Of a stretch of 64,000 nucleotides of DNA, positions 1 to 39,401 are shown piece after piece. The stretch is from contig JAYWIR010000074.1 in the NCBI GenBank assembly GCA_036172245.1, positions 186,001 through 250,000 on the forward strand, given 5' to 3'. The notes under the pieces are model-generated. The model searched no databases, was not told the origin of the DNA, and saw only the letters and a program-made list of their open reading frames with translations. The position numbers and the translations under genes are program-made. The first letter of the stretch is position 1. Each line of letters starts with the position of its first letter. The stretch is from Raillietiella orientalis (lineage: Eukaryota).

Positions 1-415
1 CCTCGCCGGGATGTTTCAGAGGAATGGTAATGTTCCCTGTTACAATCCCATGGTGAGGACGACCATCGCCCTCTTCATCACCGCCATACTTGTGCGGTGG
101 TGGAAAATGAGGAAAGCCAGAAGAGCCGCACCACCGATGGAGATCCTACAAGGGCTCCTGAAGAGAGAAATCGAGATTAGAAACTGTGGGAAAATCCAAG
201 CCTGGACGTACCGATTCATCCTGAAGAGGATAAAAGACGACGCCCGGGACCAAACAGCAGGAAACCCACCATGGGTGCAGAACTTGTGAGAACCCAAGGA
301 CTTCGTAGTGGTAAAAAAAGTGCTAATGGTATGGATGAGATTGTAGTGTGAATGTTTTTATAGATAAATTTCAGAAAAATAAATTTACCCCACCCCTCGT
401 GGGACTCGGGGAAAA
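1..415 (+). mobile_element. 3' fragment of lineage C LINE (end of ORF2, 3'UTR, AATAAA-hairpin terminus)
   Basis: Closely similar to 38985-39401; ORF 11-289 matches the C-terminus of lineage C ORF2; ends AATAAATTTACCCCACCCCTCGTGGGACTCGGGGAAAA. Confidence 0.9.
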
Positions 416-1639
416 CTGCCGAGTCGGCGATGGGGCGACTGCATGCAGCGTGCTTTTGCTCGTCGCGACGCTGCTTTTTACGGCTTTCGTAGCCTTTGCA
501 GTGGAGCCTGCGCTACAGTGGGGCTGTCCGGAACTCGGAAGGGACAACGGAAAGGGGCAAGAAGTCTTCGCACTGTTGCGATCTTCCTGTTTTCCTACCT
601 TTCTCTCCAGGGTGTTACGGAGATTTCCTGGTTCCTGGCTCGGAGAGGTGCCTGCGAGTTTGGCAGAGAGGGAAGGCACTGCACGCGTCAAACGCTCGCA
701 CCCCTTTTTAATTTTCTTCCACGCCGTGACTTTCCCCTTTCGGGACGTTGCGGGCGGGGATGCTTTCCTTTCATCCACGGATCGCTCGTCGTTTTTTGCG
801 AGTTTTTGCGGACGACGTTTTTTATTTGCCGCTGCGGCTTTTCTTGCAGTGGTCTCTTGAACCCGACGAATTTCCGCTGCGGCTCTTTTTCTTGCAAGTC
901 CCGGGCACTTTTTGATTTCGTGCCCGGAATCTTTGCAATAGCGGCATCTTGGAGAGGGGCACTCTTTAATTCGCTGCCCCTCCTTGCCGCACTGCTCGCA
1001 CGCGCGAGTCTGGCCTATGAACCACAGGTGAACGACCGTGCCGTTCACCTGCAGCTTCTCAGGCACAACACGCCTGTTCGCGACGGTGATCCGTGCGGAG
1101 GCTTTTCCAATGTGGACATAGGGGAAATCCTTTAGAGGATTTGGCCTCCCCCACAGAGTGTGCACGGTGGCGAACTTCGCCTGCACACTTACGACATCGC
1201 GGTCGGAGATTTCAGGTTCGATGTCGCACAATTGAACGACAAAAGAGTCGTGCATCGCGGTAGGTAGGACTTCCTTGCCATTGATGGTTAACGGCGTACG
1301 GAGAAGGCGCTGCACAAGTGCTGCGTTCTTGCACCGAATCTTGGTATATTCCATCCTGCCAGCAGGCATTATGGCAAGAAGTTCCTTCTCGCGAACGCCT
1401 ATCCGTACGAGCTCATCATTGAGCTCACGACCTATTCTCCCGTTAAGTGGCACACTGACCTTATAACGGAGTGCAGGCATGTATGCTGATGACACATATG
1501 CCTGGAACTCCGCATCGCAGGGTCCTGGTCTTTTGGAGGTAACGGCGGCGTAACTCCTCACCGGGGGCGAGGAAACCATTACGGAGGATGCGGCCACTTC
1601 AAGTGCAGCTGAAGTGCATCCAGTGGCTTGCTCCTCCAC
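416..1639 (-). pseudogene. LINE ORF1 (nucleic-acid-binding protein with two zinc knuckles), truncated at SPTRQ
   Basis: ORF 371-1639 has CEQCGKEGQRIKEC and CRYCKDSGHEIKKC; the residues after SPTRQ are read from the antisense C terminus. Confidence 0.85.
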
Positions 1640-1778
1640 ACTATCCTGTGTACTGGCGATGTTGCACTATGCTACTTGTCAGATTGCACAGTTACACACA
1701 AGTGCGAGCAAAAACGCAGGCACAAAGTTGCCCGATCGTTGGCGCGGACAGACGCGGAAACACGTCTGCACTGTACGA
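416..1778 (-). mobile_element. 5' part of lineage A LINE (5'UTR + ORF1), cut by the C insertion
   Basis: Paralog of 39402-40762; GACGTGTTT motif at 1761-1766; joined to host APE sequence at ~1779. Confidence 0.9.
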
Positions 1779-2091
1779 GCGCAAGAGATCGAACGGATCT
1801 CCGGAGGGCGGCAATAGTACTGGTGTGGGAGAGCGAAAAGTTGCGCTGTCGCCTACCTGCTTCGGCCAGCCGTCGAGGCCGCGGCTCGGGGCGTGCAGTT
1901 CGACGATTACGGTCGTGTCGGCCAGCTGACTCTCAGGTGGTCCGACTCGATCGATCTGATCGTCAGGAACGTGTACGCACCGAGCGGCGCGGAGGATGTG
2001 GAAAGAGGTTTTTCTTGCTCCATCGCGACTGGCTGACCGAAGCAGGCGTGCGGAATGCTTATGTGGTTGCAGGCGATTTCAACGTTCGCCT
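1779..2091 (+). mobile_element. APE fragment of a lineage D host element (QEI...NVYAP...GDFN)
   Basis: Aligns with 45472-45801; resumes at 10426 after the B' insert. Confidence 0.85.
2076..2091 (+). repeat. 16-bp target-site duplication, left copy (ATTTCAACGTTCGCCT)
   Basis: Identical copy at 10426-10441. Confidence 0.9.
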
Positions 2092-2238
2092 TCATACGAG
2101 TCGGACGTGATTTCTTGTCGCTCCGTGGTTTCGCTGTTTGGTTGTGTTTGTGCATCCCACTGCACATCCCCAAGCAGTGAACAACGCAAAGTGTAAGACC
2201 TCGAGTCTGTAGTTCAGGAACTTTCTGCAGCTGGAGTG

Positions 2239-3430
2239 ATGGCGAGAACGTGTGCGAGCCGTGCGCCACCGACCAGGAGCATTGTGGACGTGGCTGCTTC
2301 TGCAGTCGTACAAGGATTCCTCTCCGACTAGGCGGACATGCAAGCCTATGCAGCCCAGGCCTACAAGCCTGCTGCCTGCTTTAACGTAAGTGTAGTAGGT
2401 AAGGCTGGGGAGGATTTCGAGGGTGAACTGTACCGTGTGGGAGTGCGAGAAGAGGACCTCATAGCACTGATGCCTGTTCCAGCATTGGGCTATGTGAAGG
2501 TTTGATACAAGCAGTCTGCACTTGTGCAGAAACTTCTCCGCACTCCTTTGTCCATCCGCGGAAATGAAGTTTTTCCTTCCGCGATGGACGAGTCTTTTGT
2601 CGTTGTTCCCTAGGACGTAGAGCCGGAGATCAACGACAAACAGTTGATGGACGCGTTGGCGAAATTCGCAACCGTTCATGCGGTGTGGAGGAAGGAGAGT
2701 TCCTACAGGAAATTCCCTTCCGCACACACAGGATTTGCTGCGGTTATGGTAACTGTTTCTAACTGCCGCACGCTGCCTACCACGCTACAGGTCATCGGCA
2801 CGGACGTTCACCCGTGGTTCGTTGGCAAAACTCGCGCGTGCGAGCAATCCGGCAAAGAAGGGCATCGGGGTAAAGAATGCCCTTCCCCGAAGTGCCGCTC
2901 CTGTAAGGAGTCCGGGCACGAAATTAGAAAGTGCCCGGACATAAACAAAACAAAGAAGGCTGCTAGAATCCGGGGTGCTAAAGAGTGCGCAGAGGAGAAA
3001 ACAGCATCCTCAAAAAAAAAAAAACTGGGAGGCTCGCGGAAGACCGAAGATAAAAACGGCCCGAGCGAGGTCTCAAAGTTGGCTCCCTTAGAATCAAAGC
3101 CCCAAAAAAGCAATCGCGCGGCAAGGAAGCCATTTAAAAAAGGGAGAGAAGGCTCTGCGCGTACCGTTACTGTCCCAGTAGCTGATCACGGAGACGCTAC
3201 TTGCGAAATGGGATCAGTAAAACCAGTCGCTCCGTGCGACAAGGCGAAAGAAGCACACGCGAAAGAAAATTGCGTGGTAACCGTCTCCTTGAGAGCTCTT
3301 TACATTTTGGAGGCTTCAGTCGGAAACCTCACGCAGGCGTCTGCAGGTCCGTCGAAAAAAGCCGACAAAAGCAGCGCTGATTTGCCTCAAAACACGCAGC
3401 AACCAGCTGCATGCTCCCCAAGAAGACAGA
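2239..3430 (+). pseudogene. B' ORF1, degraded and interrupted
   Basis: ORF 2644-3693 has KFATVHAVW and knuckle CRSCKESGHEIRKC; stops and frameshifts upstream; start approximate. Confidence 0.75.
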
Positions 3431-6400
3431 TTGCCCCAAGTCCCACAAGGGGTGGGGTAAATTTATTCTTCTATAAAAATACACTTCTTACATTCGCACT
3501 CTCATTCACTCAATGCAAACACTTTGCACTTGGGAGTCCTTGGGTTGCACTGGAGTTCTGCTTTTCAGGGAAGGAATCCAGTTGGATGGTCCCGGGCGTC
3601 GTCCTCGATCCACTTCAGCATGAATCGGTATGTCCAGCCTTGGATTTTCCCACAGTTTCTAATGCCGATTTCCCTCTTCAGGAGCCCTTGTAGGATCTCA
3701 GTCGGTGCTGCGGCTCTTCTAGCTTTCCTCATTATCCACCACCGCTCAAGTATGGCGGCGATGAAGAGGGCGATGGTCGTCCTTACCATGGGATTGTAAC
3801 AGACAACATTACCATCCCCATAGAGCATCCCGGCGAGGATCTCCATTACGGACCTGGTGATGAGTCCGATGATCCTTTTCAGGATCAGTCAGTCATGCAG
3901 CAATGTATGACACGTCAAGACGTGAATTCCCGTGTCGTTGTGTCCCCATGCCTTGCAGTCTCGATCATCCCGCCTTTTGGTATAGTATTGCATTCGCGAC
4001 CCACTCTGGATTCCTCCATGATAAAACATCAGGAGGTCACCCTGAGTCCTCGGCGGATGGTCATCCCTCCAGAGCATCGTGCCATTCGCTAGCAGGTTGA
4101 TCCGGTCACTACCGTAGCGATGAGCGGCTTCCTGGAGGGCACTGATGTCACGGTCTTCTTCCCGAATTAATCTTCGGAAATTTATTTCGAATACCCTCGA
4201 CCACGCGAAGTCGTTGCGGTTGAGCCACACGTCGAAAGTCATGTGGGTGAACCTTCCTAACATCATCTCTAGATACCCAAGTATACGAGCGTGATGTAGG
4301 TACCCTCCTCGCCTCCACTCCTAAATTCGTTGTAGGGTAACTCTGGACCGCTGGTGGAACCAGCTCCTCGTGTCAGGCGGGACGGGAAGCATCGAAGGGA
4401 TCACCAGGATGGACTCGACCTGCCAGAGTTCCCAACTTCTCGGCACGATCTTGATTTTGTGCTTTCGCACCAGGCGTTGCTTCCTCGTCCACGTTGGGTC
4501 GATATGTTTCCATTCGCATGCTCGGCCTAGCAGAGCAGTCATCAGGCCTTTCGAGTTCTTCAACAACAACGCGTATTCCCTGTGCGCCGCATAGGGCCAG
4601 TCATCCCAGTGGGTGGCAATGTCCAGGATGTGTCGCGTATCCATGATTTCTATGAAGTGTGCAAGCGACTTCATCCCGAAACCGCCTTCTTCCCAGGGAC
4701 GACAGAGGGGTTTTAGTCGAACTCTTGGGCCATAGTCGCCACAGAGTGTTTTTCTCTGCAGCTTGTCGAACTTCCTCGTGGTGTCCTTCTTCATCCTTTC
4801 GAAGGCCGCCCCGAAAAGCACTTTTGGAAGGAGTACTTTGTTCCATATGTTGGCCTTTCGCTTCATTCCAAGGTCCGTTCGGGTGTACTTAGCTGCTTCC
4901 TTGGCCCTTTTTCCTAGGATCTCGGACCACAATAGCTTCGACGCGGAGACGTCGCCAATGTAGACACTTAGGTACATGGCATTGTCCACAGTTCGCAATC
5001 CCTTTCTCCCTAGAGCGAAGAGATCGAGGATTTCAACGGGCAAGAGCTGGAATTTCTGGGCGTTGATCTTAAGACCGACGCCTTGATCCATCAGGTCTAC
5101 CACTTCCAGAAACGCTCGTTGATTTCTCTCTACCTTGAAAAAGAAGAATAGATCATCAGCGTATGTTAGATGGGTAAGACGCTGGCCATCGATTGTTATA
5201 CCTTGCAGTCGTCCGCTCTTCTCGATAAAGGACGGCAACGCCTTCATGTAGATAAGGAACAGCATCGGACTTTGCTAATCGCCCTGCCGGACTCCCTGTG
5301 CCATCCAGATTGCTGCCGTCTGCTTGCCGTTGATTTTGATTAGGCAGTACTGGTTCTGGGGTACCACCCTTACGAAATTGCTGAAGTGTTTTGGATGGCC
5401 TACCTTCTCCAGAATCTTCAGCAGCATCCCATGGTCGATGGAGTCGAAAGACTTTTCCATGTCAGCGAATACCAGCGCCAGGTTCTCGCCGACGTATCGG
5501 CTGAGTCCGACGGTGGCCTGGGCACACTTGACATTGCCCGACATGTGACGTCGAGGGACTGCACACGTTTGGACCGGAGAGATGAGCTTCGACATGACCC
5601 TGCCTATGCGGATGGACCAGATCTTCGCCAACCACTTGGCTCCGGAGTTCAGGATTGAGATTGGCCTTCATTGAGCGATCTGTGTTGGGTCGCCTCCTTT
5701 AGGCAACATTTCCATCATACTCTAGTAGGAGGAATTAGGTAGTCTTCCTTCTTCACGGATGCAGAGGGTCAACGGGTGGAGCAAGCGCAGGTAGGCATGC
5801 AGGTACCGCTTGTAGTGCGTGATAGGAACAGTGTCAGGGCCCGCCGCTACATCCTTGCGCAGTTGTCGAAAAGCAGTCTTCACCTTATCTTTGGAGAATT
5901 CCTCCTCCAGTTTGTTCCGCTGGAGGTCGTCCGTCTTTTTCTCGAGATAGCTCAGAAAGCCTTGTTGACTAGAGCGACAAAGATGTTGTCGCCTGAAGTG
6001 TTTGGTGTAATCCCTGTGAAAGGCATCCACGATATCTTCGGTCGACAGTCGCTATTGACCGTCATACTGAATGCAGAAGATATCCGTTGCCAGGTTTCTC
6101 TTCTTTCGCACGCCTACCTCCTCTTTTATGTTGTTTAAGACGTTCCGACTCTTGTACTGATCGAAGTCCTTTGAGAGTGAGCGATCTTGGATGTTCAGCT
6201 CCCGGTACGCCTCCTGCCTCAAGCGCCTATCCTCGAATTGCATATTTGCAAACAGGTGTATCCTGTGTTTTAAGCTGTGCCAGTCGGCAACTCTTCTGAT
6301 TTTTGTGGTCTTTAGAATCGTCTCCAGGACATCCTGATATCCAGGATGAGTCTCGAACCAGGCGGGCATGCTAATGAGCGCCGCCCTAGTGCCTTGCCTC

Positions 6401-6700
6401 CGCCGAGCATTCTCCGTTCTTAAGGAAAACCGTTCTAACGGGTGATCGGACAGAGTGATCACTGTGTCTCGAAAACCCTGAATGCGCCGCAACATCCTTG
6501 AGCAGTTTTGCAAAAGCAGTCTTCACCTCGTTTTCGGAGAATTCCTCCTCCAGTCTATTCCGCTGGAGGTCGTCGGTCCTCTTCTCGAGATAGCTCAGAA
6601 AGGTTTGTGGACTAGAGCGACAGAGATGTTGTCGCCTGAAGTGTTTCGTGTAATGCCTGTGAAAGGCATCCACGATATCTTTAACGACTGTCGCTCTTGA
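3431..6700 (-). mobile_element. Lineage C LINE, 5'-truncated (end of APE, RT, 3' end), with an internal duplication
   Basis: GVRQGD, YADD, DMEKSFD in ORFs 4321-5265 and 5275-5631; C-type terminus at 3431-3467; ~6487-6700 repeats ~5845-6060. Confidence 0.88.
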
Positions 6701-9700
6701 TCGCGCAGGAGGAAAGCTACTTTGGCGGTGTGGCGACGCGCGTACGTGCGGCGTCGCGTTACTCTTAAGAGGAAAAATTGCGGAAGCGGTGAGTAGTGTT
6801 CGCTCCGATGACGACGGAGGGGTAAGCCAGCTTGGTATCAAGTGGTCTGAGTCCATCGATGTCTTGGTGACGAACATCAGCTCGCATAGTGGCTCGCGCT
6901 ACCTCGAAGATAGAATTGCGCTATTCGAGGATGTGAAATGCCACTGGCTCAACAACTCCGGCTCCCAAGTAACGCACCTCGTCGCAGGCGACTTCAACGT
7001 CTACCTGCTATCCGACGAATGGAGCTGCCCGAGGTAGCGAACGTCGGCCATCGAGATGTGCGCGTCAGTACGCGCTATCAATTTGATGGTCCGCGTACCT
7101 GAGATGGATAGGTCACCGGATCACACCTTCCTCGATGACAACCTGCACGCTCGTGTGGAAAGAAGAGGAAGATTGTCGTCCGCACTTTGTGATCATAACA
7201 GGTTGAAGTTCGAGCTCCTTCCGCCAGGCAAGGGGCCTCCGCTGAAAAACTGGAGGATGTCGGCAAACTGGCTTAACCATCCGGAGGCGACGGATCATCT
7301 CCGTCAGTACCTCCGGACCTTCGTCATCCGCGAATTCGCGGACTGGGATCATTTGAAAAGATCAGACCGCAAGTTCTGCGAACCGTTTCTCTTGCACCGG
7401 CTCCCGCAAGGATTTTGAGAAGGGGTCGCCAACAGCAGTACTTTCCTGCAGGCGCGCACCTTTTCCAGAAGCGCTGAACTCAGCCAGCTAGCGGAATACA
7501 AGTCGAGAGCCGAGCGACAGATCTGGCAGTCTGGAACATCTTGCTTGCTCGGCGAAAAAGGCCTGGAGTGCTCGACACCAGCCGGTATTCGCCGCATCGT
7601 AAGGCGTCAATACTCCTCCCTATTCGTGGTAGCGCATACGGAAAATATTTTTTCGGAGATACTTATGTTCCAGGATGCTCTCGTTGTTAGGGAAGAGGAA
7701 CGCGCATGTCTCGACGAGTCCTACACAGCAGAGGAAATTTCCTCCGCTATTGCGGGACTCCAGAGACGAAAAGCACCAGGTGAGGACGGGCTACCCGCGG
7801 AGTTCTATCAGAGCTTCTCGACGGAACTCGTCCCTCCGGTGTTTAGTCTCTCCCGTTGATGAGGGTCTCGGGGGATGTCCCCAATTCCTTCCGCTCAGCG
7901 AGGGTGCGTCTCCTGCCGAAAGGTGGAGACGAACGCCATCTCAACAACTGGCGTCCGATCATCCGGGTGAACTCGGACGTCAAGTTGTTCTCCAAGATGT
8001 GAGTTGCGCACCTAGGGAGAATCGCGCAGTCCTTGGTAAGCCCAGAGGAGACTTACGCTGTTCCCGGGCGGTGCAAGGAAGCAAACCTCCTGTTTCCCGT
8101 ACCTGGATGCAGCTGCAGGAGCGCGTTGCGCAGCCACGCCGATACGTGTCCAAGGCCGCTGCAAAAGGCACACGGTATCGACAGAAGCGTAAGGAGGGTA
8201 CGCCTGGTGCCTTGACGGTCGCAGTCGACCTGCACAAGGCGCTCGATTGCGTGAACCAAAAGCTCTTATTAGAGCTCCTGGAACGCCTAGGTCTCCCGGC
8301 GTATCTCCTGAAGTACTTACGCGCTTGCTGCCGCCACGCGCTAACCTGCATTTCTTTTAGCGGCTGCCACGTGTACGGTATTGCTGTGCGTAGGGGCATC
8401 ACACAGGGTGACAGCTTAACCTCGTTGCTCTTCAGCATCTTCTCCGAGCTGGTGCTGAGGGCGTACAGGCTGTCGCTGGAGTACCTGCCAAGCTCCTGTT
8501 CGCGTACGCCTGCCGTGGCTGCCTATGCAGACGACCTACTTCTTCTGCACCCCATCTCCACACCGGCAGCCAGTGTCGAAGATTTATTCGAACTGATTCG
8601 TCGGGGAGCGGGCGTGAGTGGAAACCGGAAGAAGAGCGTCGTCGTACCTGTAGGAGCGTCGTGGGAGGGGCAGTCCAACTAAATCCGCCTGGGGATCCTA
8701 ACGGCAGGTTATTTCCAGTACCTTGTAGTTCCGCTGCGCAACCTGGGTTCTGCCGAGGCGTGGTGGGACTGCCTTCAAAGGGCAGAGTTGGCAGTCAGCC
8801 CGTTCCCTAACGGCAAGTTCACCTTGCCGGAACAGGCAGCTATTTGGAACACCTTCGTGGCTCTTCTCGTTCGACCCCTGTTTTTCTTCTTGGACCCCTC
8901 CCTACACGGCTAAAGAGCTGTCAAAACGCCTGCAAAGGAACGCACTCTGGGGTCCGGCGCGATCCAGGATCGTCCTGAAAGACCTCGCGGCTCCACGTCG
9001 GGATGCTGGGCTTGGCATCCTTACGATGGAGAGAATCGGACTGCAAGTGCAGTTCCGGATGCTCGCACTGTGTGCTCAGCTATGGACATTCCCCCTGTGT
9101 GCGCCTGCGCGCATACTCCTAAGAAGGTGTGCAGGCTGTGAAGGACTTCATTCCTTGGTGTCTGGCATGCGTTACAGGAAACAGGGATTTGGCTTTCCTC
9201 TGAGGCAAATCGCCTCCCTATTGGAAGCCAATGCGTGGATTTCCTGCTGCCCGATGAACTACAATGCTTGGCGGTATGAGTCCATTGATTGTTGGGCTGT
9301 ATCGTTAGGAATAAGCCGTGAAGATCTTTGCCCCCAACGTCGATTTCAGCCTCAATCCCTTGCTGGACGAGGTGAAGTTTTCCTCCCTGGCCTCCACGCC
9401 GCTCGCCGAAGCACTGTCTGCACTCAAGGATCGAGATGAGAGTAGCCAGCCGGCGAAGTGGGTGTTCTCTCGCACCATTGCAGGTAGAACAAAACCAGTT
9501 GGCAAATAAGCCAAGAGCGAGCTTGCAGTTGCCGCCACTCCTCGTGCAGCACCAAAGGTATTACTTCGGTGAGAAGAAGAACTAGGTGTAGCTTTCGAGG
9601 AAATTACAATACCTATTTGGTGTTTGGACGGTTCGGTGTTTTTCTTTGCATGAAAGCAATACGTTTTGCTCTTCTTGCACTGAGGCTTGCGCTACAACGA

Positions 9701-10112
9701 GCGGTGCCACCGAGTTTACGGTGGTGTGGCTTCTTACTACTGTGCCCGGTGCGGGGCGACGGAGTCGTTCCCGCACCTTGTTATGCATTGCAGTGCCCTC
9801 CAGCAACTCTGGCGGTGGCAAGCAGCATCTTTTCGGCTTCCGGGGGACATTGATCGAGAAGTGCTACGACGCTTCTTCCAGCCACAAGGACTTTCAATGG
9901 CTGCGACGATTTCCACTGTTGGGTTCATCCGCGCCATCGTCACGGTCCGAGACGTGCTGGAGAACACTGGACAGCAATGTTGTGTCACCAGGAAGGCAGC
10001 TGACTTCATCAGTTCGGCAGCTTAGTGGCGAAACTTATATGAAGACACAACGGAGGAGCTAACCTTTATCCATCGCCGGATCACCAACGGCTTCGAACGA
10101 CGAAATCTGTGA
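6700..10112 (+). pseudogene. B' ORF2 (APE-RT-zinc finger), many lesions, N-terminus missing
   Basis: AGDFN, PGEDGLPAEFY, DLHKALD, GITQGD, AYADD, CARC...PHLVMHC; closely parallels B1 ORF2. Confidence 0.88.
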
Positions 10113-10425
10113 TCCGCCCTCATTTTATTTTTGATTGTTTTTTTTGTTCTGGCGTCCTTTTTCCCATACGCTCCGCAGTTCTTTTGGAGCTAGAACTTTT
10201 GATTTTACCGTTGACTGCGGAGCAATCTCAAAGTTCCCTAGCCGACTCCTCCCATTTACAATTTTTTTTTTTTTTTGGACTCCCTTCAGTCGTCCATGTT
10301 CTTCCGTTTTCCTGGCCTGCATGACAGGGGTGAATCTCCGCTGCATGTTTTCCAAATGCATTGCTGGGAACAATTGTTTAAGGCACGTTTATGTCAATAA
10401 ACGTATCGACGTGACCGGGTGAAAA

Positions 10426-10441
10426 ATTTCAACGTTCGCCT
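10426..10441 (+). repeat. 16-bp target-site duplication, right copy
   Basis: Identical to 2076-2091; the host APE frame (FNVRLKPD) continues after it. Confidence 0.9.
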
Positions 10442-18266: not shown

Positions 18267-18278
18267 ATCTCTTGCGCT

Positions 18279-19638
18279 CACACAGGATAGACGTGTTTTT
18301 CCATCTCTCCGCATTCGCGATTAAGCAAATTTGTGCGTGCGCTTTTGGTCGCATTTGTGTGTTTATCATAAGTCGAACCAGCAGCGTTTTGCAGCATGCC
18401 CACTGCTCAGAATGGTGTTGAGTTGCAAGCCGTTGAATCCACTCCTACTGGTCTGGAAGCGGCTGCATCCTTCGTGACGGTTTCCTCGCATTCGGTAGAA
18501 ACCTACGCCGTTGTCTCCTTCCAGGAAGCAGGAAACTGCGATGCAGAGTTGCATGCTTATGTGGCATACGGCTACATGCCCGCACTCCGTTATAAGGTCA
18601 GTGGGCCCCTTAACGGGAGGACCGGGCGTGAGCTCAACGATGAGCTCGTCTGGATCGACGTTCGGGAGGAGGAGCTCCTTGCCATTATGCCTGCGGGCAG
18701 GATGAAATACACCAAGATACGGTATAAAAACGCGGCACTTGTGCAACGCCTTCTCCGTACTCCGCTGCCCATCGGTGAAGACAAGGTCCTGCCTTCAGGG
18801 ATAAACGACCCTTTCGTCGTCCAATTGTGCGACATCGAGCCAAAAATCTCCCACCGCGATGTCGTAAGTGTACTGGCAAAGTTCGCCACCGTGCACGCTC
18901 TGTAGAGGAGACCAAATCCTTTAAAGAATTTCACCTCTGTGCACATTGGAAAAGCCTCCGCACGTATCACCTTCGCGAGCAAACGTGTTGTGCCTAAGCA
19001 GGTGCAGAATAACGGCACGGCCGTTCACCTCTGGTTCATGGCAAGGATAGCGCATGCAAGCAATGCGGCAAGAAGGGAACCGAATGAACAAATGTTTAGC
19101 TCAGACATGCCGCTACTGCAAGGAAACCGGGCATGAAATCAAAAAGTGTTCGGTGCTTGCAAAGCAAAGGGCAACAGTGGAAGTTCGTCGCGTTCAAGAG
19201 ACCAACGCACGAAAAACAGCTGATTCCAAGAAAAAACAGTGTCTGCGGAGTCTTGGCAAAAGAGCCAAGCAATACGCCGCAAAACAACCGGCGTCCCCGC
19301 CCGCAACGCCCTGAGAAGGAGAAATCACGGCAAAAAAGCCAAGGAAAAAGAGGCAGGAGGGCCTCACGCATGCCGTACATGCTCTAGTTGTCGTACTGCG
19401 AAGCATCTCTCCAAACCAGGAACGGGAAGATTTGCGAAGACTCTCGATAGGAAAGGTAGGAGAGCAGGAAGATCGCCACACAGCGAAGACTTCCAGCTCC
19501 AACCCGCTATCAATTCCCTAATCGGCAAAGTCCCACTCGAACGCAGGGTCCCCTGCGGAGGCTACAAAACCCGTAGCAAGACTAGGCGCGCTGCGTAAAA
19601 GCACGCTGCAGGCAGCCTCCCCTTCACGGACTCGAAAA
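18279..19638 (+). mobile_element. Lineage A-type LINE (A''), 5'UTR + ORF1, cut by a C insertion
   Basis: GACGTGTTTTT at 18290; ORF 18396-18905 is homologous to A ORF1 (YMPALRYKVSGPLNGR). Confidence 0.85.
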
Positions 19639-22600
19639 TTTTCCTCTAGTCAGACAAGCAGTGGGGTAAATTTATATTCCATTTTTTAAAACACATTCAT
19701 TACAGAATCACATTGACACAACATACGCACTTTACATCCCTGTGAAGTCCTTTGGGATATTACAAGTTCCGCTTTCAGGATGGGTTTCCTGATGTTTGGT
19801 CCCGGTCTTCGTCTTCAATCCTCTTCAAGATAAGTCGGTAGGTCCAGGCATGGATTCGTCTACAGATCCCGATGCCGATCTCCTTCTTGATGAATCCTTA
19901 AAAGATCTCCATCAAAGGTGCGGCTCTCCTGGCTTTCCTCATTCTCCACCACCGCACAAGAATAGCGGTGATGAAAAGAGCAATGATCGTCCTCACCATG
20001 AGATTGCAACAGCGAACATTACCATCTCCCTGAAACATTCCGATGAAGATCTCCATTACGGATCTGTTCGTGAGTCCGATGATCCTTATCGGGATCAGCC
20101 AGTCATGCAGCAATTTGGGACACGTCAAGACGTGAAGTCCCGTGTCGTTGTGTCCCCATGCCGTGCAGTCTCGATCTTCCCGTCTTCCGGTATAGTACTG
20201 CATTCGGGACCCACTCTGGATTCCTCCATGATAAAACATCAAGAGGTCACCCTGGGTGCCCAGCGGATGGTCACTGTTCCAGAAAATCGTGCCATTCGCG
20301 AGCAGGTTGATCCGGTCACTACCGTAGCGATGGGAGGCTTCCTGTAGGCCACTGATGTCACGGTCTTCTTCCCGAATTAATCTTCGGAGGTTTGTTTCGA
20401 ATACCCTCGACCACGCGAAGTCGTTGTGGTTGAGCCACACCTCGCGGGTCATGTGGGTGAACCTTCCTAACATCATCTCTAGATACCCAAGTATACGAGT
20501 GTGATGTAGGTACTCTCCTCGTTTCCACTCCTGGATTCGTTGTAGGGTAACTCTGGACCGCTAGTGGATTTAGCTTCTCGTGTCCGGCGGGACAGGAAGC
20601 ATCCAAGGGATCATCAGGACGGACCCGTCCTGCTAGAGTTTCCTACTTCTCGACACGATCTTGATTTTGTGCTTTCGCACGAGCCGTTTCTTCCTCGTCC
20701 AGCATGGTTCGATTTTTTTCCATTCGCCTGCTCGGCCTAGCAGCGCAGTCATCAGGCTTTTCGAGTTGTTCAACAACAACGCGTAGGCCCTGGCCGCCGC
20801 ATTCGGCTGGTCATCCCAGTTAGTGGCAATGTTGAGGATGTGTCGCTTATCCATGATTTCTATGGAGTGTGCAAGCGACTTCATCCCGGAAACGCCTTCT
20901 TCCCTGGGAAGACACAGGGGCTTTAGTCGAACTCTTGAGGTATAGTGGCTCCACAGTGTTTTTCCCTGCAGCTTGTCGATCTCCCTCGTAATGTTCTTGT
21001 TCATCCTCGCGAAGGCCGCTCCGGAGAGCATTTTTGAAGGAGTACTCCGTTCTATATGTTGTCCTTTCGCTTCATTCCAAGGTCCGTTCGGGTGTACTTG
21101 GCTTCTTCCTTGGCCATTTTCCCTAGGATCCTGGTCCACAATACCTTGGACGAAAGTCGTAGCCAATGTAGACACCCAGCAACTTGGCATTGTCCACCGT
21201 TCGGAATCCTCTATCCGCTAGAGCGAAGAGATCGAGGGTTCCAACGGGAAAGAGCTGCCTTTCTGGACGTTGATCTTCAGACCCAGGTCTTGATCCATCA
21301 GGTCTACCACATCCAGAAACGCTCGTTGATTTCTCTCTCCCTTAATAAAAAAGAGTAGATCATCAGCGTATGCCAGATGGGTAAGACGCTGGCCATCGTT
21401 TGTTATGCCTTGCAGTCGTCCGCTCTTTTCGATAAAGGACGACAACGCCTCCATGTAGATAACGAACAGCATCAGACTAAGCGAATCGCCCTGCCGGACT
21501 CCCCGTTCCATCCGGATTGCTGCCGTTTCCTGGCCGTTCATTTTGATTCGGCACTTCTGGTTCTGGAGTACCACCCTGACGAAGTTGCTGAAGTGTTTCG
21601 GAAGGCCTACCTTCTCCAAAACCTTCAGCAGCATCCCATGGTCGATGGAGTCGAAAGCCTTCTCCATGTCAGTGAACACCAGCGCCAGGTTCTCGCCGAC
21701 GTATCGGTTTAGTCCGACGGTGGCCTGGGCACACTTGACATTGCCTGACATGTGACGTCCAGGGACTGCACACGTTTGGACAGGAGAGATGAGCATCGAC
21801 TTGATCCTGCCTAAGCGGTAGGACAAGATCTTCGCCAACCACTTGGCATCGTAGTTCAGGATTGAGATTGGCCTCCATTAAGCGATCTGGGTTAAGTCGC
21901 CTCCTTTTGGTAAGAATCTCATCCTACTCTCGTAGAAGGAATCAAGTACTCTGCCTTCTTCTCGGATGCAGAGGGTCAACTGTTGGAACAAGCGCAGGTA
22001 GACATGCAGGTACCGCTGATAGTGCGTGATGGGTACACTGTCATGGCCCGCCGCCAAATCCTTGAGCAGTTTTCCAAAAGCAGTCTTCACCTCGTCTTCG
22101 GAAAATTCCTTCTCCAGTCTGTTTCGCTGGAGGTCGTCGGTCCACTTCTCGAGATACCTCAGAAAAGCCTGTTGACTATTGCGACAGAGATGTTGTCGCC
22201 TAAAGTGTTTCGTGTAATGCCTGTGAAAGGCATCCACGATGTCCTCGGGCGACTGTCGCTCTTGACCATCGTACGAAATGCAGAAGATATCTGCTGCCAG
22301 ATTTCTCTTCTCCTGCACGCCGACTCCCCCTTGTATGTTTTTGAAGACTTTTCGACTCTCGTACTGATCGAAGTACTTTGAGAGTGATCGATGTTGGATG
22401 TTCAGCTTCCGGTACGCCTCCTGACTCGAGCGCCTATCTCCGAATTGTATATGTGCAAACAGGTGTATCCTGGGTTCCAAGCTGTCCCAGTCGGCGACTC
22501 TTCTGATTTTTGTGGTCTTCAGAATCGTCTCCTGTACCTTTTTATGTCCAGGATGTGTCTCGAACCAGGAGGGCATGCTGATGAGCGCCGCCCTGGAGCC

Positions 22601-22900
22601 TTGCTTCCGCCGTGGATTGTCCGTTCTTAGGGAAAACCGCACCAACGGGTGATCGGACAGAGTGGTCAAAGTCTCGAAAACCCTGATTGCGATTCCCTAG
22701 TTCGGTGCTGTGGAGTATGTGATCGATCGGCTTGTGACTTGCTGTTCGCCATACCAGTCCGAACTCGTCCGATAGTCGCCGATAAGCCGTCCTACTTCTG
22801 GCGTCTTGGCAATGAATGATCTCATCCAATAAGTTGAGATCACCAGCAACAATCACCACGTCCTTGGGGCGACCTTTTCACGGAGTGCTGCATGCAGCGC
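19639..22900 (-). mobile_element. Lineage C LINE, 5'-truncated (partial APE, RT, 3' end)
   Basis: AGDLN, IDH, LSDH, DMEKAFD, GVRQGD, AYADD in ORFs 21218-22859; decayed C terminus at 19639-19675. Confidence 0.88.
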
Positions 22901-22904
22901 AGTG

Positions 22905-22995
22905 TTCGGAGGATGCCGGCAGACTGGTTGTTTTACCCGGAGGCGGCGGAGCACCTTCTTTAGTACCTCCGCGACATTGCCAGAATTGAGCTTGC
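22905..22995 (+). mobile_element. Short post-APE fragment (RMPADWL...PEAAEHL), probably the rest of A''
   Basis: Translated by eye; matches WRMPADWL/PEAAEHLR in other copies. Confidence 0.6.
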
Positions 22996-25130
22996 TTCTC
23001 ACTTGTTTGCGCCGGGGCGCTCATACTTGCAAATAGAACGATATTCTGTTGTTCAACTGGTGGTTTAGCCACGCAAGAGTACACAGCAACAAGCGTGCCG
23101 GGTCATCGCTCCGCTGTTCGGTACGGTCAACCATATCAGCAGAGGGGGCTGGGACAAAACAAAAAGATATGAATCATAGTAAAAACTATATGAAAATAAG
23201 ATCTGGAGGACACGGGAGAGGATCACAGTCTGCTGCGAGGCCGTACCATTCTTTCCAGAATGTCTGCAAGCTGTTCTTTAATAAATGAATTTAGATGGGT
23301 CCATCCGCTCGCCGTCCTCATAATTTCGACTTAGCATTGGACGGCAGTCTTATCGCGTGGTACTCCAGTTGCCTTGCACAAAGCAACCACGCTTCCAAGA
23401 AAGCAGCACATGGCTGCTAACGATGCCGCTGACCAAAGTCCGTCGCAAACGAAGATGGACCAAATAGCGTCTCTGGGGTTGCTACAGAATTTACCTATTC
23501 CCGAGGCAATGCGGTTCCAAAGGGGCCGAAGAGAAACGCAATCCATAAGGAGGAGGAGGAGGGAATTATTTTCCCCCACCTCACACAATTAGGGTTAAAC
23601 GCTCCCCATGTCCAATGGTGCCGGCGGGCGTTGCAAGGAAGTCCCCAATGCAGCAACAGTAATTCCGATTCCTGCCACTTAAGGAAAAGGGTGGAGGGTT
23701 TTATTAGCACCGGAGGCCAATGTATTTGTTCCGTCGGAACTTTTAGAAGCTCACCTTAGCGCAAAAGTTCAATAGAGGTTTTAGTCCAAGAAGAAGCATC
23801 GTACAAAATTCCCGTTTTCCACTTTCTGATCTTTTTCTCCCTACCGGAGATTTTTATGAACACCTTCTATTTCACTGCAGTGTTTCTGTATAAATATTCC
23901 TTAAGCAAAGACAGCAATGCGGCGAGGGGAGTTTTTCTCGCCCACGATCGTTTTTGGGGATGCTTCAGAATCTCACGGAGCGCGAGGCGGTCGTTGCGAG
24001 CAAACAGTTGCCTTCCATCTTGTCCGGCGCGGTGCTCGTTGCTTGTCGTCCACGAGTAAACGGTTTCCTGGAGCCAAGCGGTTCCGTTAACGGGGTGACA
24101 GGAAAGCCATCCTACGTTCATGCTCATCAAATTAGAGACTCTTCGTAGCTGCAACCCGCAGTGACAGACTTGACGGCGACGACGAAGCGCAAGAAAGGAT
24201 GACAGTCCCACCTTGCCTGTAGCCTTTTCGACGAGAAGACGTGCAAGCTCGCACCAGCTGCTCTAGCGTCAGGAGGCCAAGACCGCCGTGCCGACGCGGA
24301 GCGCTCAAGTCCTCAAGCCGGAATCAGACACACCCATTACACCATAGGGCAATCCTTAGGAGATCCTTCGTCCGCTTTTTAGTTTCTGTGGTAAAGGGAC
24401 ATACAAAAGCAGGAAATGGAGGAGGAGCGCCGCGAATGCGTTCCACACCGCAGCCCGTTCCGGCAGGAAAAACCTGCGGCTTTGGAACGGGCCGATCGCC
24501 GTCTCTACCTTTTGAAGGCAGCTGTACCACGCATTCAAAGGGAGATCATCACCCATCGGTACACCGCGGTACTTGAAGTACCGTATCGTGGTGATCACCA
24601 AACGGACCCAGTCCGGCTGCCCTGCCCACGCCGCACCAACTGGCACCACCGACTACTTCTTTCCGTTAACATGTAATCCGGCCCCACGGCTAAGTAGGTC
24701 GGAGAAATCAAGGATCTTCTACGCCGGGGTGTATCTAGGTTTCAGGAGCAGAAGATTGTCGGCATGGGCTGCTACGACAAGGGTGTCCGGGCACGAGCTC
24801 GGCAAGGGGGCCAAAGTGACCATGTGCAATCTCAGCACCAACTCAAAGTAGCTGCTAAAGAGCAGCGGACTCAGGCTATTGCCCTGTCGTATGCCCCGCC
24901 GTACCTTACGCCGTCCACGGTGTTTCCTGAAAAAGATCTGTATGATCGCGTCGCGCCAGCAGGATCGCAGGCAGGTCAGCAAAGAAATCGGAAAGCCCAA
25001 GCGTTACAAGAGATCCAGCAGGAGCCTCTGGTCAAAACAGTCGAATGCGTCAAGCAAATCGACAGCGACTGAGAGGGCTCCTTTCCCTCCTTAACTATCT
25101 TCTATTTTGGCTTGGACATTTCCGAAGTCC
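22996..25130 (-). mobile_element. Lineage H (D-related) LINE, old 3' part (RT, zinc finger, decayed 3' end)
   Basis: GIRQGNSLSPLLF, AHADN, LHWGLPCNARRHHW; decayed terminus CGCCCCGGCGCAAACAAGTGAGAA near 22996-23020. Confidence 0.75.
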
Positions 25131-27660: not shown

Positions 27661-29490
27661 TGACACGCTCTCCTTCACCAATGAAAGTGGGGGCATCCGC
27701 TCCCACGGAATCCGGGGCACTTGCCCTATCGGAATCGGGCGCAACCGCCCCCTCGCAAACCTCTTCGCCATTGGCGAGGAGTTGGAGTGACGTCGTTGCT
27801 GCACCATGCTTGGATGCAGTAGCGGAGCAGACTGCCTAAAAGGACAGCGGCTACAAGCCTTCTCTGACCTATAAGGTAGGCAGTGTGTTTGATGAAAAAA
27901 TTGCACGCTCCTTCGAAATGGAGCTGCAAAGGTTGAACGTGTGAGAGGAAGACCTTTTAGGCCTATCCGTCCTCAGTGGTGGCCAGCGAGTTGAGCTGAC
28001 ATGCAAAGAGGAGAGTCCGGCGCAGCGACTGCTGAACACCCCTCTTACGGTGGACGGCCGCAGGATCTTCCCTGTGACGGAGTACCGCTCAGTCGTGGTC
28101 CACCTCATGGGCGAATTACTCCGAATGGACAAAACTAGCGTCCATGATGAGTTATCGAAGCATAGTAGTCTGCACGCGTATTGGGCCAAACCCAATGTCT
28201 TCCGAACGTACGGAAGGCTATTCAGTGGAATGGCAGCAGTCCGCGTCACCCTACCAGAAAATGGTGGGCTTCCACACAAACTGAATATCGGCGAAGAAAT
28301 AGTCGATGTTTGGTACGTGGCTAAGCCCAAGTATTGTGGACATTGCAATGCAACAGGGCATCTAAAAAAGCGGTGCCCTAACATCCAATGCCACTTATGT
28401 GGAAATAAGGGCCACATCCGTAAGGTGTGCAAAAGAAGAGAAATATCGTCCCCATCCGCTGCCAAAAAGGCAAAGGGGAAACGCACGGGAGAGACGCATA
28501 AACAGAAACAGGCTGTAAACCCCCAGACGCCAGTCCCTATGCCCTCAAAGCAAACGTCGGTTGAGAACAATTCCGACGACGCTGGTGAGGGCGAAGGCTG
28601 GCAGACGGTACAGCCCAGAAGAAAGCCCAGGAGTCCCGAACGAAGCGCGGAAAAAACAAAAACGCAGCGCGAAAATCCGTGCCGCGAGAAAGTTCGCGAT
28701 TGGTCGGTAAAATTAGAGCGTGCGGAGGCACTCCATGCCTCCATCAGGGGAGCAATCTGCCCACTTGCGTCCGCCGAAGCCGCGACGGTCGATGACGAAT
28801 CTTCTGGGGAAACAGAGGGGGAACCGCGCGCCGCGCTCGACGCGATCGAAGGGCCGCCTTCCAGCAGGCGGTGGAAGAACTCGAGGCAGAACTGCAAGGC
28901 CGTGAGAAGAACTTCCGAAAAGGCTGACGAAGGCAGGCCGCGAGGAAGGTTCCGGATGCACGTGACGCCCAACCGGATGCCAGAATTGCGTCCTCATTAA
29001 CATAGGCGCTACCAAACAAGACAAGACGCGAGTCCCAGAATCCCAGAAGGCGCATAGGGATCAAGAAGGAGGAGCATCAACTGGCACCCGAGGGGGAAGC
29101 CGGCAACGTAAGAGCCGAGAGTAGGAATCTCATTTCTCGACACCGTGCAGCTGGCGACCCCCATGGAGGAGGATGTCCAGGTGGGTGAACCCCTACTTCC
29201 TCTACAAGGCCCCGACGACGACTCGTACTCCATGGAGGAAAGAGAAGCGATGCGCGGCGAACCCCCTCCTCTTAGCGTCCCGCCCGACAAGGTGGCGGGA
29301 GCCCCATTGCCAATTTCCCAGGATTAACACCTCGAATCGCCTGTTGATGTAGGATCCGCGTAACCTGCTGGAACGTCAACGGGCTGCGCGATGACGGCAA
29401 CAGGCGGGACACAGCCGACACCATGCGTGACTTCGACCTGGCACTCCTGCAGGAGATCCACGTGATAACCGCGGAGAACGACCAGAAGAT
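27661..29490 (+). mobile_element. Lineage E host, part 1 (ORF1 + start of APE)
   Basis: Knuckles CGHCNATGHLKKRC and CHLCGNKGHIRKVC in ORF 28050-29000; WNVNG...LQEIHVITAE up to 29490. Confidence 0.85.
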
Positions 29491-29823
29491 TTCTCACCCG
29501 GTCACACCAGGGCGTTTATTCCATATAACATAACCTAAAAAGCAATTATACAAAATAAACCAGTTAGGAAACAAACTCCCAACTGACGACTGAACAAGAA
29601 TGAAGAGATTATTACTGGCACGGAGGCCAGAGTAACAGTTTTGCGAACGGTGTGGGGGGGCGTGGAACACAACGAAACCAGATTAAAATAAAAACAATGA
29701 ATAAGGAGGACGGGATAAGGTACTTTGGGATCGCTCTGGAAGACACGGGGATAAAACCACGGGCACCGGAAATTTTACCGAGCGAACGGAAATGGGGTAT
29801 GGGTGGGCGAGAGGTCGCAGGGG

Positions 29824-32800
29824 TCACCGGATTACGCCGTTCTCCTAGGTGTGTAAACCGGTGATGCATGCCGGTGATGTCCTCATTTACCTTGTCACGA
29901 AGATGAGATCACCTTGAAGCCTTCTCCATGAATTGAGCCGCAAGCAAGCGAGCCTCCCTTCGCTGCGCTGACAACTCCAGGGCGTAGCGGGCCTTCAGGA
30001 TGGCGCGAACGCAACACATAATTGCGACAATCGCGCAAACCGAAAGTCCATTTCTACTGAAGAAGCGCCGCAGCACATCAATGGCAGTGCCTCCATGTAG
30101 CATGATGGCCGAAGTGAGCCTTTCCCACAGTTCCAGGAGGTCACTGCAGTACAGCAAAAGTTGCGGAAAATACTCGATCTCTCCGCACCTTAAACAGTTT
30201 GGCAGAGCAGCTCCCCCGGAAACGACGCTTCGCTGCCTATTACAGTGTAATGCACAATGTAAAAAGACCAGCACATCTTGTTTTCGCTTTACGGAGAACA
30301 CAGAGCTGTCCAAACAAACAGGGGTAACCACTATCTCTCCGGGGGGCACACTTGAATGATCGCTCCACCGAAGATGGCCCTTCGCCCGATTCCGAGGAGT
30401 GGCGGCTTGCACCAACTCCATTGTCGTCCAGTTGCCGAGGAGCTTAGTGACTTCCGCTATTTTGCAGTAGAACTCCTATTCCGCCAATAGGCAACCGTCG
30501 TAGCTTGCCCTGAGGGCAGACAGCGCTGCGGCGAGTAGTGTGGCGACCAGACGATCCGACAACTTCTTGTCCTGCATGACTACGTCCATTTGATGACTGA
30601 GGAGAAGTCGCAGGCGTCGAAGATCTTCCGGGCGCGTTCCTTCGAAAGCTGCCCACGATGAAAAAGATTCCTGCCGCCATGCATTCGTGTTAATGTCGCG
30701 GCAGGAGATCCAGCTTTGGGCTTCCAGCAGTGAGGAGAGCTGCCTCAGCGGGAAGCCAAACCCTATTCTGGTGTGCCGAAAGTGGGGTAGCAACGAAAGC
30801 AGTTCCTCGCATCCTGTGCAGCGCCTCAGTATAAGGCGTGCGGCTAAGCACCAAGGCGTGCACCACAGCCTCGCACAGAGCCGCAGCATGCGAAACTGCA
30901 CCTGCAGTTCGATGCTGTTTAAGTCGAGGATGCCCAAGCCTGCATCCTGACGCGGCGCCACCAAGTCTTCAAGTCTAACACGGGATCTTGCAGTGCCCCG
31001 CAACGCTTTGCGTAGAAGGCGCTGCGCCCAGACTTTGACTTCCACGGGGGGTGGACAAACAAAAAACAGGGGGCGGAAGAGGGGAACAACGAACGTTTTT
31101 CAGATGCAGGCCCGTTCCGGCAAGACGAACTTGCCTCCTGAAAACGGGCTAAGTGCACGCTCTGCCTTCCGAAGGCAATCCGACGACGCTTCTGAGATGC
31201 AGAAGTCGCCCAACGGCACGCCAAGGTACCTGAGGTACCTGCCCGTTGGCATCCCCTGGTCGATCCAGACGGATTTCTCCTCCCACGTTGCACCCACCGG
31301 AACAACCATACACATACTCCTGTTAACGTTCACGCAAGCACCGCGACGAATCAACTCGAAGAAGTCTTCAAGCGATGTCGCCGCTTTGGACATGGGCAAC
31401 AGGAGAAGCAGGTCGTCGGCATAGGCTGCCACGGCCGGCGTACCTGGACAGGAGCTCGGTAGGTTGGCTAGCGTCAGCCTGTAAGCCTCCAGCGCCAATT
31501 CAAAATAGATGCTGATAAGCAGCGAACTTAAGCTATCACCCTGCCATATTCCTCGTCGTAATGGCACGCCGTACACGCGACAGCCACTAAAAACAATGGA
31601 TGTAATCGCGAGGCGCCAGCAGGAGCGCAAGTACGCCCACAGGGATGCCGGTAGACCCAGACGTTCGAAAAGCTCCAGAAGAAGCTTTTGGTTCACGCAA
31701 TCGGAAGCTTCGTGCACATCGACTGCAACCAACAAGGCTCCCGGTGTCTCCCTTTGCGTCTCGCGCCTCCGTCGGTGAGAGATCGAAAGCGTCGCTTCCG
31801 CACGACGAACCACCGCCAGACTATTCTGCAATTGCAGCTATGTGCGGATGAACAAGAGATTCGCGTCCATTGACCTCCCGGGAACAGTGAACTTCTGCTC
31901 CGGACTTACCAAGGATTCCGCGATCCTACCCATCAGCGCCACCGAAAGTTTCGAGAATAGCTTGACATCCGAATTCACTAATGTGATCGGACGGCAGTTG
32001 TTCAGTTGGCGCAAATCACCGCCTTTCGTCTGTAGACGCACCTTGGCTAAGCGAAAGGAGGCGGAAACATCGCCCAAGTCTCGCATCAGCGACGAGAGTT
32101 GGAGCACCAGGGGGATGAGTTCCGCCGCAAAACGTTGAACGAATTCCGCGGGGAGCCCATCTTCCCCTGGCGCGTTTCGTCTCTTGAGCCACGAGATGGG
32201 CGAGGAAATTTCCTCTGCCGTGAAGGGCTCATCAAGACGCGCGCGTTCCTCCTCGTCTACAACAGGTGCATCAATCGGCAAAAGCTGCCGGGAGAGGCTG
32301 CGTTTCGTCGGTGCCTCTGCATACAGAGAAGAGTGAAAGCGCTTGACTATCCGTCGCACGTAGGCTGGAGCAGAGCATTCCAGTTCCTGGTCGTCGAGCA
32401 GAACTGTCGCCCCTGACTGCCAGACCTGGCGCTCGGACTTGGCCTTGTACTCGGAGAATCGACCAACGTCCGCGCGCCCTAAAAAGGAGCGGGCATGCAG
32501 AAAATCTCTGCTGTTGGCCACGCCCTCTTCGAAGCCGCGCGGAAGCTGTTGCAAGGGAAACCGGCAGCAGAACTCGCGGACCGATCTTTTCAGATCGTCC
32601 CAGTCCTCAAGCTCACTCATGGCAAAGCCGACAAGCTACTGGCGAAGATGCTTAGCAACCTCCGAGTGGCTTAGCCAGTCTGCCGGCATCCTCCAAAAAC
32701 AGTTTGGAGGCCCCTTGCCTGGCGGGAGCAATTCGAACTCGAGCCTGTTGTGGTCTGAAAGCACGGACGGCACGGGACCTCTCCGACCCACGCGACAGAG

Positions 32801-33416
32801 CAAGTGTTCATCAAGGTATACGTGGTCCGGCGTTGCTTCCATAGCAGGGTCGCTAGCGAACAAGTTGCACGGGTGCACGGACGCGCACATCTCTTTTGCT
32901 TGGAACTTTTCCCTTTTGTGTGATCTATTCTCGGAAAGCAGGTGGACGTTAAAGTCCCCCGCAATGAGATGAGCCACAGTAGGGTGAGATCGAGTGAACC
33001 ACTGGCTTTGAAGGGTACCGTATAAATCAATCCTTTCGGCCCATCGTCTCAGCACCGCTCGGCGCGTACACGTTGGTTACGACAAGGTCGATCGATTCGG
33101 ACCACTTGAGTACAAGCTGTCCCACTCGGCCTTCCGTGTCGAAACGAACGCTGCGCACCGCTCCCGCCAAAGTTCCTCGCACGAGGAAAGCGACGCCGCA
33201 CGTACTTGCAACGCCGCACCTATAAAGCAGGGTTCCGCCAGCGCTCCGTTCGATTTCGGCAGTCTGCTCTTCGGAGATGCTGTGAATCTCCTTCAGGAGC
33301 GTCAACTCGAAGGCGCGCAGAGCGTCAGCCACTAGTCGCCTTTTATCCTCGTGTTGGAGCCCGTTGACGTTTCAAGACGTTACGGCAACACGACGAGAAG
33401 ACGCGATTGCCCTCAT
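29824..33416 (-). pseudogene. Lineage A ORF2 (APE-RT-zinc finger), frameshifted
   Basis: NVYAP, AGDFN, LSDH, PGEDGLPAEF, GIWQGD, AYADD, CLRCG in successive ORFs. Confidence 0.88.
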
Positions 33417-34075: not shown

Positions 34076-34090
34076 CTGCCGAGTCGGTGA
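34076..34090 (+). repeat. 15-bp TSD, left copy (CTGCCGAGTCGGTGA)
   Basis: Right copy CTGCCGAGTCGGCGA at 39402-39416, one C/T mismatch. Confidence 0.88.
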
Positions 34091-35991: not shown

Positions 35992-36004
35992 GACTTCTCC
36001 TTTC

Positions 36005-39275: not shown

Positions 39276-39401
39276 GTACCCAAGGACTTCATAGTGGTAA
39301 AAAAAGTGCTAATGGTCTGGATGAGATTGTAGTGTGAATGTTTTTATAGAAAAATTTTAGAAAAATAAATTTACCCTACCCCTCGTGGGACTTGGGGAAA
39401 A

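Follow-up and report, generated by a model that had tools for sequence, protein, structure and literature searches.

The occurrence of one LINE at a single point within the coding sequence of other LINEs raises the question of whether the element finds that point on each occasion, or whether one insertion has been copied along with its host. The question arises from a 64-kb window (the whole stretch of DNA that was analysed), which is filled by LINE fragments on both strands with CCHC knuckles, APE-type endonuclease and reverse-transcriptase (RT) domains in their ORFs. Comparison of the window with itself reveals many diverged copies, one nested inside another, such that LINE copies lie in LINE copies; lineage C, for example, lies within A, which in turn lies within the element T4, and also within A'', which lies within T1. 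A near-intact A-clade element at 47977-55600 has an ORF1 of 669 amino acids (53507-55513), an APE ORF of 446 amino acids and an RT ORF of 706 amino acids; a partial copy of it, 96.7% identical, comes next in head-to-tail order at ~49591. Contigs related to the region are present in a public sequencing run, X1 (0.09 share of words).

Lineage C is found at four loci. When its full-length copy is compared with the 64-kb window by blastn, the seven HSPs extend over 1-415 (+), 3431-6694 (-), 19639-22900 (-) and 34088-39401 (+, self), with none elsewhere. The fourth copy, c4 (34088..39401, + strand), is full length in extent at 5314 bp, having a 5' UTR, an ORF1 with a CCHC knuckle, APE, RT and a 3' UTR; numerous frameshifts and stop codons interrupt it, and it is without ~250 bp at 38475, a stretch that is present in c2 (4351-4599) and c3 (20561-20809). 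Among the loose ends listed for X1 contigs, some fall at 38475. The first copy, c1 (1..415, +), is cut by the start of the window to its 3' terminal 415 bp, which hold the ORF2 C-terminus and the 3' UTR ending in ...GGGGAAAA, and is 93.7% identical to c4 over these 415 bp. The remaining two are 5'-truncated: c2 (3430..6703, -) is colinear with C nucleotides 2516-5314 and repeats C nucleotides 2950-3147 at its 5' end (6485-6703), while c3 (19639..22900, -) starts at C nucleotide 2305.

The terminal sequence of C is AATAAATTTACCCC...GGGGAAAA, the final bases being GGGGCAAT in c2 and GAGGAAAA in c3. The 3' end has the motif AATAAATTTACCC..., and a scan of the window for the C 3' motif, in which up to five substitutions were tolerated, gives five matches, four of which are the C ends; the fifth, at 23564 with four mismatches, shows no C homology in blastn. 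In metagenome contigs, a search for the exact pattern of the C 3' end had no match. With an Exo_endo_phos domain at 35879-36319 (30.5 bits, cut-off 24.5) and an RVT_1 domain in c3 (E=1.7e-27), lineage C is, as judged from its domains, an autonomous-type APE-endonuclease LINE, all of whose copies in the window are dead. Of the 79 matches to the C RT in a protein search (E<=1e-3), the best have 29-33% identity, and no match carries a family name; the A RT gave one match at E<=1e-20, at 56% identity and also without a family name. A PDB search returned weak AP-endonuclease matches only (best E=0.0086).

The junction in host ORF1

All four C copies in the window end antisense at one codon, ...SP[T/R]R[Q/K]|, in the tail of the ORF1 that belongs to an A-clade LINE. 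In an alignment of the four units, the ends ...GGGGAAAA, ...GGGGCAAT and ...GAGGAAAA fall in one register and are followed directly by host antisense sequence, CTGCCGAGTC in c1 and c4, CTGTCTTCTT in c2 and TTTTCGAGTC in c3. The host codons that precede the junction are TCG CCG ACT CGG CAG (c1, c4), TCC CCA AGA AGA CAG (c2) and TCA CGG ACT CGA AAA (c3). A first-pass annotation of this DNA had described such a coincidence, and its account is largely borne out: alignment and blastn place the C 3' ends at 415, 19639 and 39401 against host ORF1 in the same register, the residues that it named (SPTRQ twice, SPRRQ and SRTRK) are correct, and, within the window, four of the four copies found by blastn lie at the ORF1 site. 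The junction that it gave at 3431 is also real, with the coordinate shifted, since the alignment puts the end of c2 at base 3430. Its ranking of the hosts, in which B' was the more distant, is reversed; A'', the host of c2, is the most distant at 44-48% difference, as against 26-27% between B' and A.

The final 190-212 residues of the four host ORF1 pieces are colinear in 219 columns and stop at the same end residue (n=4), with identities to the tail of the c1 host of 83, 50 and 39%. The probability that three independent insertions would strike the same nucleotide, on the same strand, of a ~6-kb host is about (1/12000)^2. In other words, the observation is far beyond chance, which does not explain the pattern.

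Each host can be followed on at least one side of its C copy. That of c1, an A element (416..1792, -), retains its 5' UTR and ORF1 up to ...SPTRQ, as identified from an ORF at 371-1666, tblastn to A ORF1 and an exact 12-mer, CCGACTCGGCAG, at bases 416-427; its 5' end (about 1778-1792) adjoins the APE codons of T1. The c2 host, A'', consists of a 5' part (2092..3429, +) with the 5' UTR and ORF1 up to ...SPRRQ, and a 3' part (6704..10427, +) that starts, by tblastn and a 3' end motif, at APE residue ~68 and reaches the 3' end ...GGGTGAAAAAT; beside the C 5' end A'' is without its ORF1 tail and APE residues 1-67. As a whole A'' (2092-10427) is bounded by a perfect 14-bp target-site duplication (TSD), TTCAACGTTCGCCT, at 2078-2091 and 10428-10441, and an empty site with the same 14-mer uninterrupted lies at 45788-45801. 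The c3 host, B' (18268..19638, +), has a 5' UTR and a frameshifted ORF1 up to ...SRTRK, and on the right of c3 there lies, in host orientation, an A-clade ORF2 piece (22901..22996, +; about APE residues 253-281), an arrangement that would be consistent with a ~1.4-kb host deletion. The c4 host, again an A element, has a 5' part (39402..40777, -) with the 5' UTR and ORF1 up to ...SPTRQ, and a 3' part (29489..34075, -) with the ORF1 tail (ERSNLPTVKK...), ORF2 (APE and RT) and the 3' end. This host is a single 11.3-kb insertion in T4, the halves of which (end 29488; start about 40778) directly adjoin each other in the paralogue T' (63055/63058). Since the T4 halves are contiguous in T', and since the c2 host is bounded by a 14-bp TSD, C lies inside single host elements.

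The clearest case is c4, which is flanked by an exact 12-bp direct repeat, a perfect TSD, with CTGCCGAGTCGG on the + strand at both the C 5' end (34076..34087) and the C 3' end (39402..39413). Past the repeat the host ORF1 frame resumes, ...SPTRQ|ERSNLPTVKK..., followed by the host APE and RT up to the 3' end at 29489; the corresponding position in an unoccupied relative has ...SPFTAPRE|VRNRNEVKK.... Thus, c4 is a real, discrete insertion within its host. A TSD is seen in one (c4) of the three copies that have a 5' junction in the window; c2 and c3 have host deletions instead.

A region that consists only of repeats is prone to misassembly, and it could be supposed that the junctions come from a collapsed or chimeric assembly. 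This is scarcely credible. Between the four junction copies both flanks show differences of 6-30%, so that a single sequence has not been placed four times. Moreover, among the X1 contigs listed there are some that bridge both c4 junctions at 92-95% identity, one over the C 5' junction (33864-34379, 41 differences) and one over the 3' junction (39358-39708, 19 differences, with a different stretch in the C 3' UTR), such that the c4 junctions are not an assembly artefact. As far as they are listed, these contigs hint at a further copy.

Independent insertions and the copying of one event

A common junction could also have been inherited, if a single old C insertion had been multiplied, as a C-plus-host composite, by DNA duplication inside the repeat island or by retrotransposition of a C-bearing host. 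A composite that is copied as dead DNA is expected to diverge equally in its two parts. This is not the case for c2, c3 and c4, between which the C coding body has far fewer differences than the host: 396/2494 vs 575/1298 for c4-c2 (Fisher p=1e-77), 331/2526 vs 372/1371 for c4-c3 (p=1.5e-26) and 393/2753 vs 625/1297 for c2-c3 (p=1e-113). Overall, C coding sequence differs by 13-16% between copies and the hosts by 27-48%, which argues for independent events and against the copying of one; in the ORF1 tail, indeed, the c2 host has only 39% protein identity to A. The host ORF1 differences between c1 and c3 are, moreover, highest at the third codon position (57/296, 52/297 and 93/296 by position), an excess that would not be expected once the frame had been disrupted. 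This means that the host lineages split under ORF1 selection, before C interrupted ORF1.

The outer ends of the copies also count against a single event. The C 5' ends differ, c4 being full length, c3 running from nucleotide 2305 and c2 from nucleotide 2516 preceded by the partial duplication, and the right flanks differ among the three. In c2 and c3 what follows is host-oriented ORF2, from APE residue ~68 and ~253, respectively, start points that indicate host deletions of 0.8-1.4 kb downstream of the nick; that of c2 is within a TSD-bounded host.

The pair c1 and c4 stands apart. These copies are 94% alike in C and 93% in the host (24/398 and 98/1376 differences, ~6% vs ~7%; Fisher p=0.5), a difference that is not significant, such that the two may be one event that was copied later. 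Their hosts lie in different T elements, which are ~73% alike where alignable; plain segmental duplication therefore fails even for this pair, while retrotransposition of a whole A-plus-C unit could explain it. To judge from these comparisons, c1 and c4 would have arisen in parallel, each by insertion of A and then of C, or else from one A-plus-C unit that moved whole.

Two further features lend themselves to the copying of one composite. In c1, c3 and c4 homology continues without a break through the junction as far as the host 5' end, and over the last 400 bp of C the divergence of c3 from c1/c4 matches that of the hosts (94/392 vs 372/1371, p=0.22). Most of the latter divergence, however, is in the 144-bp 3' UTR, which is 29-37% diverged in every inter-lineage pair, including c4-c2 with hosts at 44%; since it is high in every pair, it is read as that of a fast-evolving UTR and not as ancestry shared with the host. 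A precedent for copying may exist in the same window. In both T4 and T' the 3' end of a LINE, ...GGGTGGCAAC, lies antisense at one APE position, ~residue 313 (41503-41523; 63785-63804), the T parts being 81-85% alike and the 3' parts of the insert 64-75%. This shared insert may be a composite copied as DNA, and if so, DNA copying of composites is possible in the region.

Taken together, the sequence comparisons support at least three independent C insertions, in three host lineages, and make it very unlikely that all the junctions descend from one. The annotation's count of four insertions is thus to be reduced: divergence, 5' ends and junction register uphold at least three events, and the fourth falls away if c1 and c4 are one. 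It had also proposed a comparison of C trees with host trees; in pairwise differences, C lies below the host in the c2, c3 and c4 pairs, and c1 and c4 are equal. A separate candidate, 3' transduction of host sequence by C, was rejected for c4, where there is host on both sides and a TSD, and for c3, where the host is twice as diverged as C; it is unlikely for c1, the unit of which stops precisely with the host 5' end and at the T codon that is found for c4 as well.

The target and the mode of insertion

The arrangement is probably best described as site-specific insertion of C, on at least three occasions, by target-primed reverse transcription into the A-clade ORF1 tail in antisense orientation. 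In the observed geometry it is the 3' side of the host sense strand to which the C 3' end is attached, with the 12-bp duplication upstream; from this we infer that the host sense strand was nicked first, after CAG, and that the opposite strand was cut second, 12 bp upstream. In this scheme, the C endonuclease would nick the host sense strand after ...ACTCGGCAG and before GAGAGG, and the nicked 3' end would prime the copying of C RNA from its ...GGGGAAAA 3' end. A second cut, on the other strand 12 bp upstream, would then give the 12-bp duplication, and where 5' joining failed, a 5'-truncated copy would result, together with loss of host sequence downstream of the nick. The specificity would presumably lie in the endonuclease.

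Read-through RNA may also have a role through pairing with the 12-mer. The flank after each C copy starts CTG[C/T]C or TTTTC, such that a read-through RNA could pair with the nicked target, although this is a speculation here; co-transcription and read-through pairing are discussed for rDNA-specific elements in the part of the literature covered (PMC4494074).

In lineage A the restored site is ...ATCGCCGACTCGGCAG|GAGAGGAGCAATC..., the downstream half-site being known from c4 alone. Of the 12 bases upstream of the nick, four are invariant in the three host lineages; A and B' share eight, and A and A'' share seven. There is no unoccupied A, A'' or B' site in the 64-kb window, in which the sole match to a 19-mer across the restored site is c4's own flank, so that the empty SPTRQ sites for which the annotation had called are absent from it. 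The 12-mer with up to two mismatches has nine matches in the window against 8.3 expected, which leaves only the three exact matches as meaningful. Homologous but unoccupied positions do occur in the near-intact A-clade element (53972..53989, -; codons ...APRE|VRN, boundary 53981/53980) and in its 96.7%-identical twin ORF1 (48169..48186, -; boundary 48178/48177), where the site is diverged, with 6/12 upstream and 7/9 downstream bases matching. In X1, over 33400-40800, no joint that skips C appears among the 8 contig pieces listed of 198, and no loose end at the 3' junction among the 6 listed of 79; neither result speaks for either side.

The loose conservation of the upstream bases, with 4/12 invariant, could be taken to mean that the site is a hot spot which requires no sequence-specific endonuclease, being either fragile or structured DNA, or a place where read-through RNA pairing is combined with a weak nick preference for purine-rich AG|GA. 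Pairing of this kind is provided for in that the CTG[C/T]C or TTTTC flank would let the read-through RNA of any resident copy pair with a new target. A weak motif in common is also hinted at by the place where lineage A lands in T elements, AG|GAGAGGATC as seen in T', which resembles the C target, CAG|GAGAGGAGC. Against this, a weak motif alone would not put four of four copies at one nucleotide. Nor is structure apparent: the 60 nt upstream fold with z of -0.7 to -1.4, and nothing in the folds is common to the three host lineages. In addition, the spacing between the upstream palindrome CTGCATGC and the junction is not constant, A and A'' differing by 10 nt, which indicates that the junction tracks local sequence and not the CTGCATGC motif. 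A hot spot of this type is accordingly unlikely, and site-specific insertion is retained as the preferred reading. The suggestion in the annotation that recognition may be degenerate or structural thus divides, the former being plausible with 4/12 upstream bases common to three host lineages, and the latter finding no support in targets that fold no better than shuffles and without a common shape. A 3' hairpin of the C RNA was also considered as a signal and rejected, the same fold being predicted in c1, c2 and c4 at z of -0.2 to -1.5 and absent in c3.

The C site is one of three fixed LINE-in-LINE sites visible in the window, the other two being blocks of APE codons that are occupied by A-clade lineages. 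The c2 host is inserted sense in the APE 'DFNVRL' codons of another LINE, with the TSD TTCAACGTTCGCCT, a 14-mer that occurs also, with one mismatch, inside the near-intact A element (53023-53036); the 'DFNVRL' position is a second fixed landing site. The hosts of c1 and c4 each interrupt a T element, antisense and at one shared APE codon, Q(K/E)|E(K/R)I (~1792; 29488/29489, 40777/40778), and no clear TSD is seen at these lineage A landing sites in T elements. At this codon T' (63055-63058) and an element at 45.3-46.2 kb (~45470) are uninterrupted. The 5' ends of A and B' carry 12-15 nt of TCGATCTCTTGCGCT (1778-1792, 40763-40777, 18268-18280), which is the antisense of T1-type APE codons (~45470), the elements' own landing site, and may be a piece of target carried along via transcription from a master copy. 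At 18268 the 3' end of another element adjoins the B' 5' end, giving a head-to-tail pair.

It is conceivable, as a tentative extension, that sibling LINEs, C included, form a guild in which each has a fixed pad in the coding sequence of another. Such targeting would be antagonistic, because a C insertion severs ORF1 from ORF2 and kills the host, and hosts might escape it through change in the site. In the one near-intact A-clade element of the window, and in its twin, the site is diverged and unoccupied.

Comparison with known site-specific LINEs

If C does home into the coding sequence of sibling LINEs, the gene of another LINE would be a new class of safe-haven target. Such behaviour would explain LINE-only nested islands that build themselves, of the kind proposed as algal centromeres, and would amount to a conflict of transposon against transposon in which the target can evolve freely out of its attacker's reach. 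The C endonuclease would then be a natural case of retargeted specificity, and hence useful for the study of DNA reading by APE-type enzymes.

Known targets of site-specific LINEs are rDNA, telomeres, small RNA genes and microsatellites, together with a few other transposons. In the portions of the literature covered, transposons are included among the listed targets of site-specific APE-type LINEs (PMC4640811), and several cases are described within the Tx1 clade: Tx1 inserts into the piggyBac-type Tx1D, Tx1-Mar into Mariner-N4_AMi, at one of two sites (around position 240) in the orientation opposite to the host, and the crocodilian Tx1-8_Crp and Tx1-4_AMi into LTR retrotransposons (PMC4494074). 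As far as these accounts go, Tx1L of Xenopus laevis and its clade resemble C in being APE-type LINEs with a fixed place in another mobile element, and in that independence of insertion was argued from 5'-truncated copies (PMC4494074, PMC1919474). They differ in the nature of the target, which is a DNA transposon or LTR element, as against the protein-coding ORF1 of a sibling LINE. The likeness of C to Tx1 is one of mode of insertion, its relatives in the database being at best 29-33% identical and without a family name.

From the R1 clade, the rDNA- or telomere-specific R1Bm, TRAS1 and SART1 resemble C in the precision of their insertions. Theirs have a defined TSD; of the three C copies with a 5' junction in the window, one has a TSD. 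For the TRAS1, Tx1L and R1Bm endonucleases, a recognition length of about 8-10 bp around the cut is given in the part of the source covered (PMC1919474). In the R1 clade the endonuclease itself recognises the target, whereas for C the specificity of the endonuclease is presumed. Also, R1-clade targets are multicopy genes or telomeric repeats of the host organism, while that of C is the gene of another retrotransposon.

With respect to the nest as a whole, there is a likeness to the L1-type LINEs Zepp (Coccomyxa subellipsoidea C-169) and ZeppL (Chlamydomonas), which in the portions of the reports covered make nested clusters in green algae by insertion into existing copies (PMC3446292, PMC8226300), that is, LINE-in-LINE islands like the present window. 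The v6 Chlamydomonas paper gives no target site in the part covered. In these islands, unlike C, one family nests within itself, and the portions covered describe no fixed nucleotide site, ORF1 target or cross-lineage targeting. More generally, no description of a LINE with a fixed target in the ORF1 of another LINE was found in the portions of the literature searched. On the best reading of these comparisons, C appears to behave as a site-specific LINE of the Tx1 or R1 type, with a target of a new kind.
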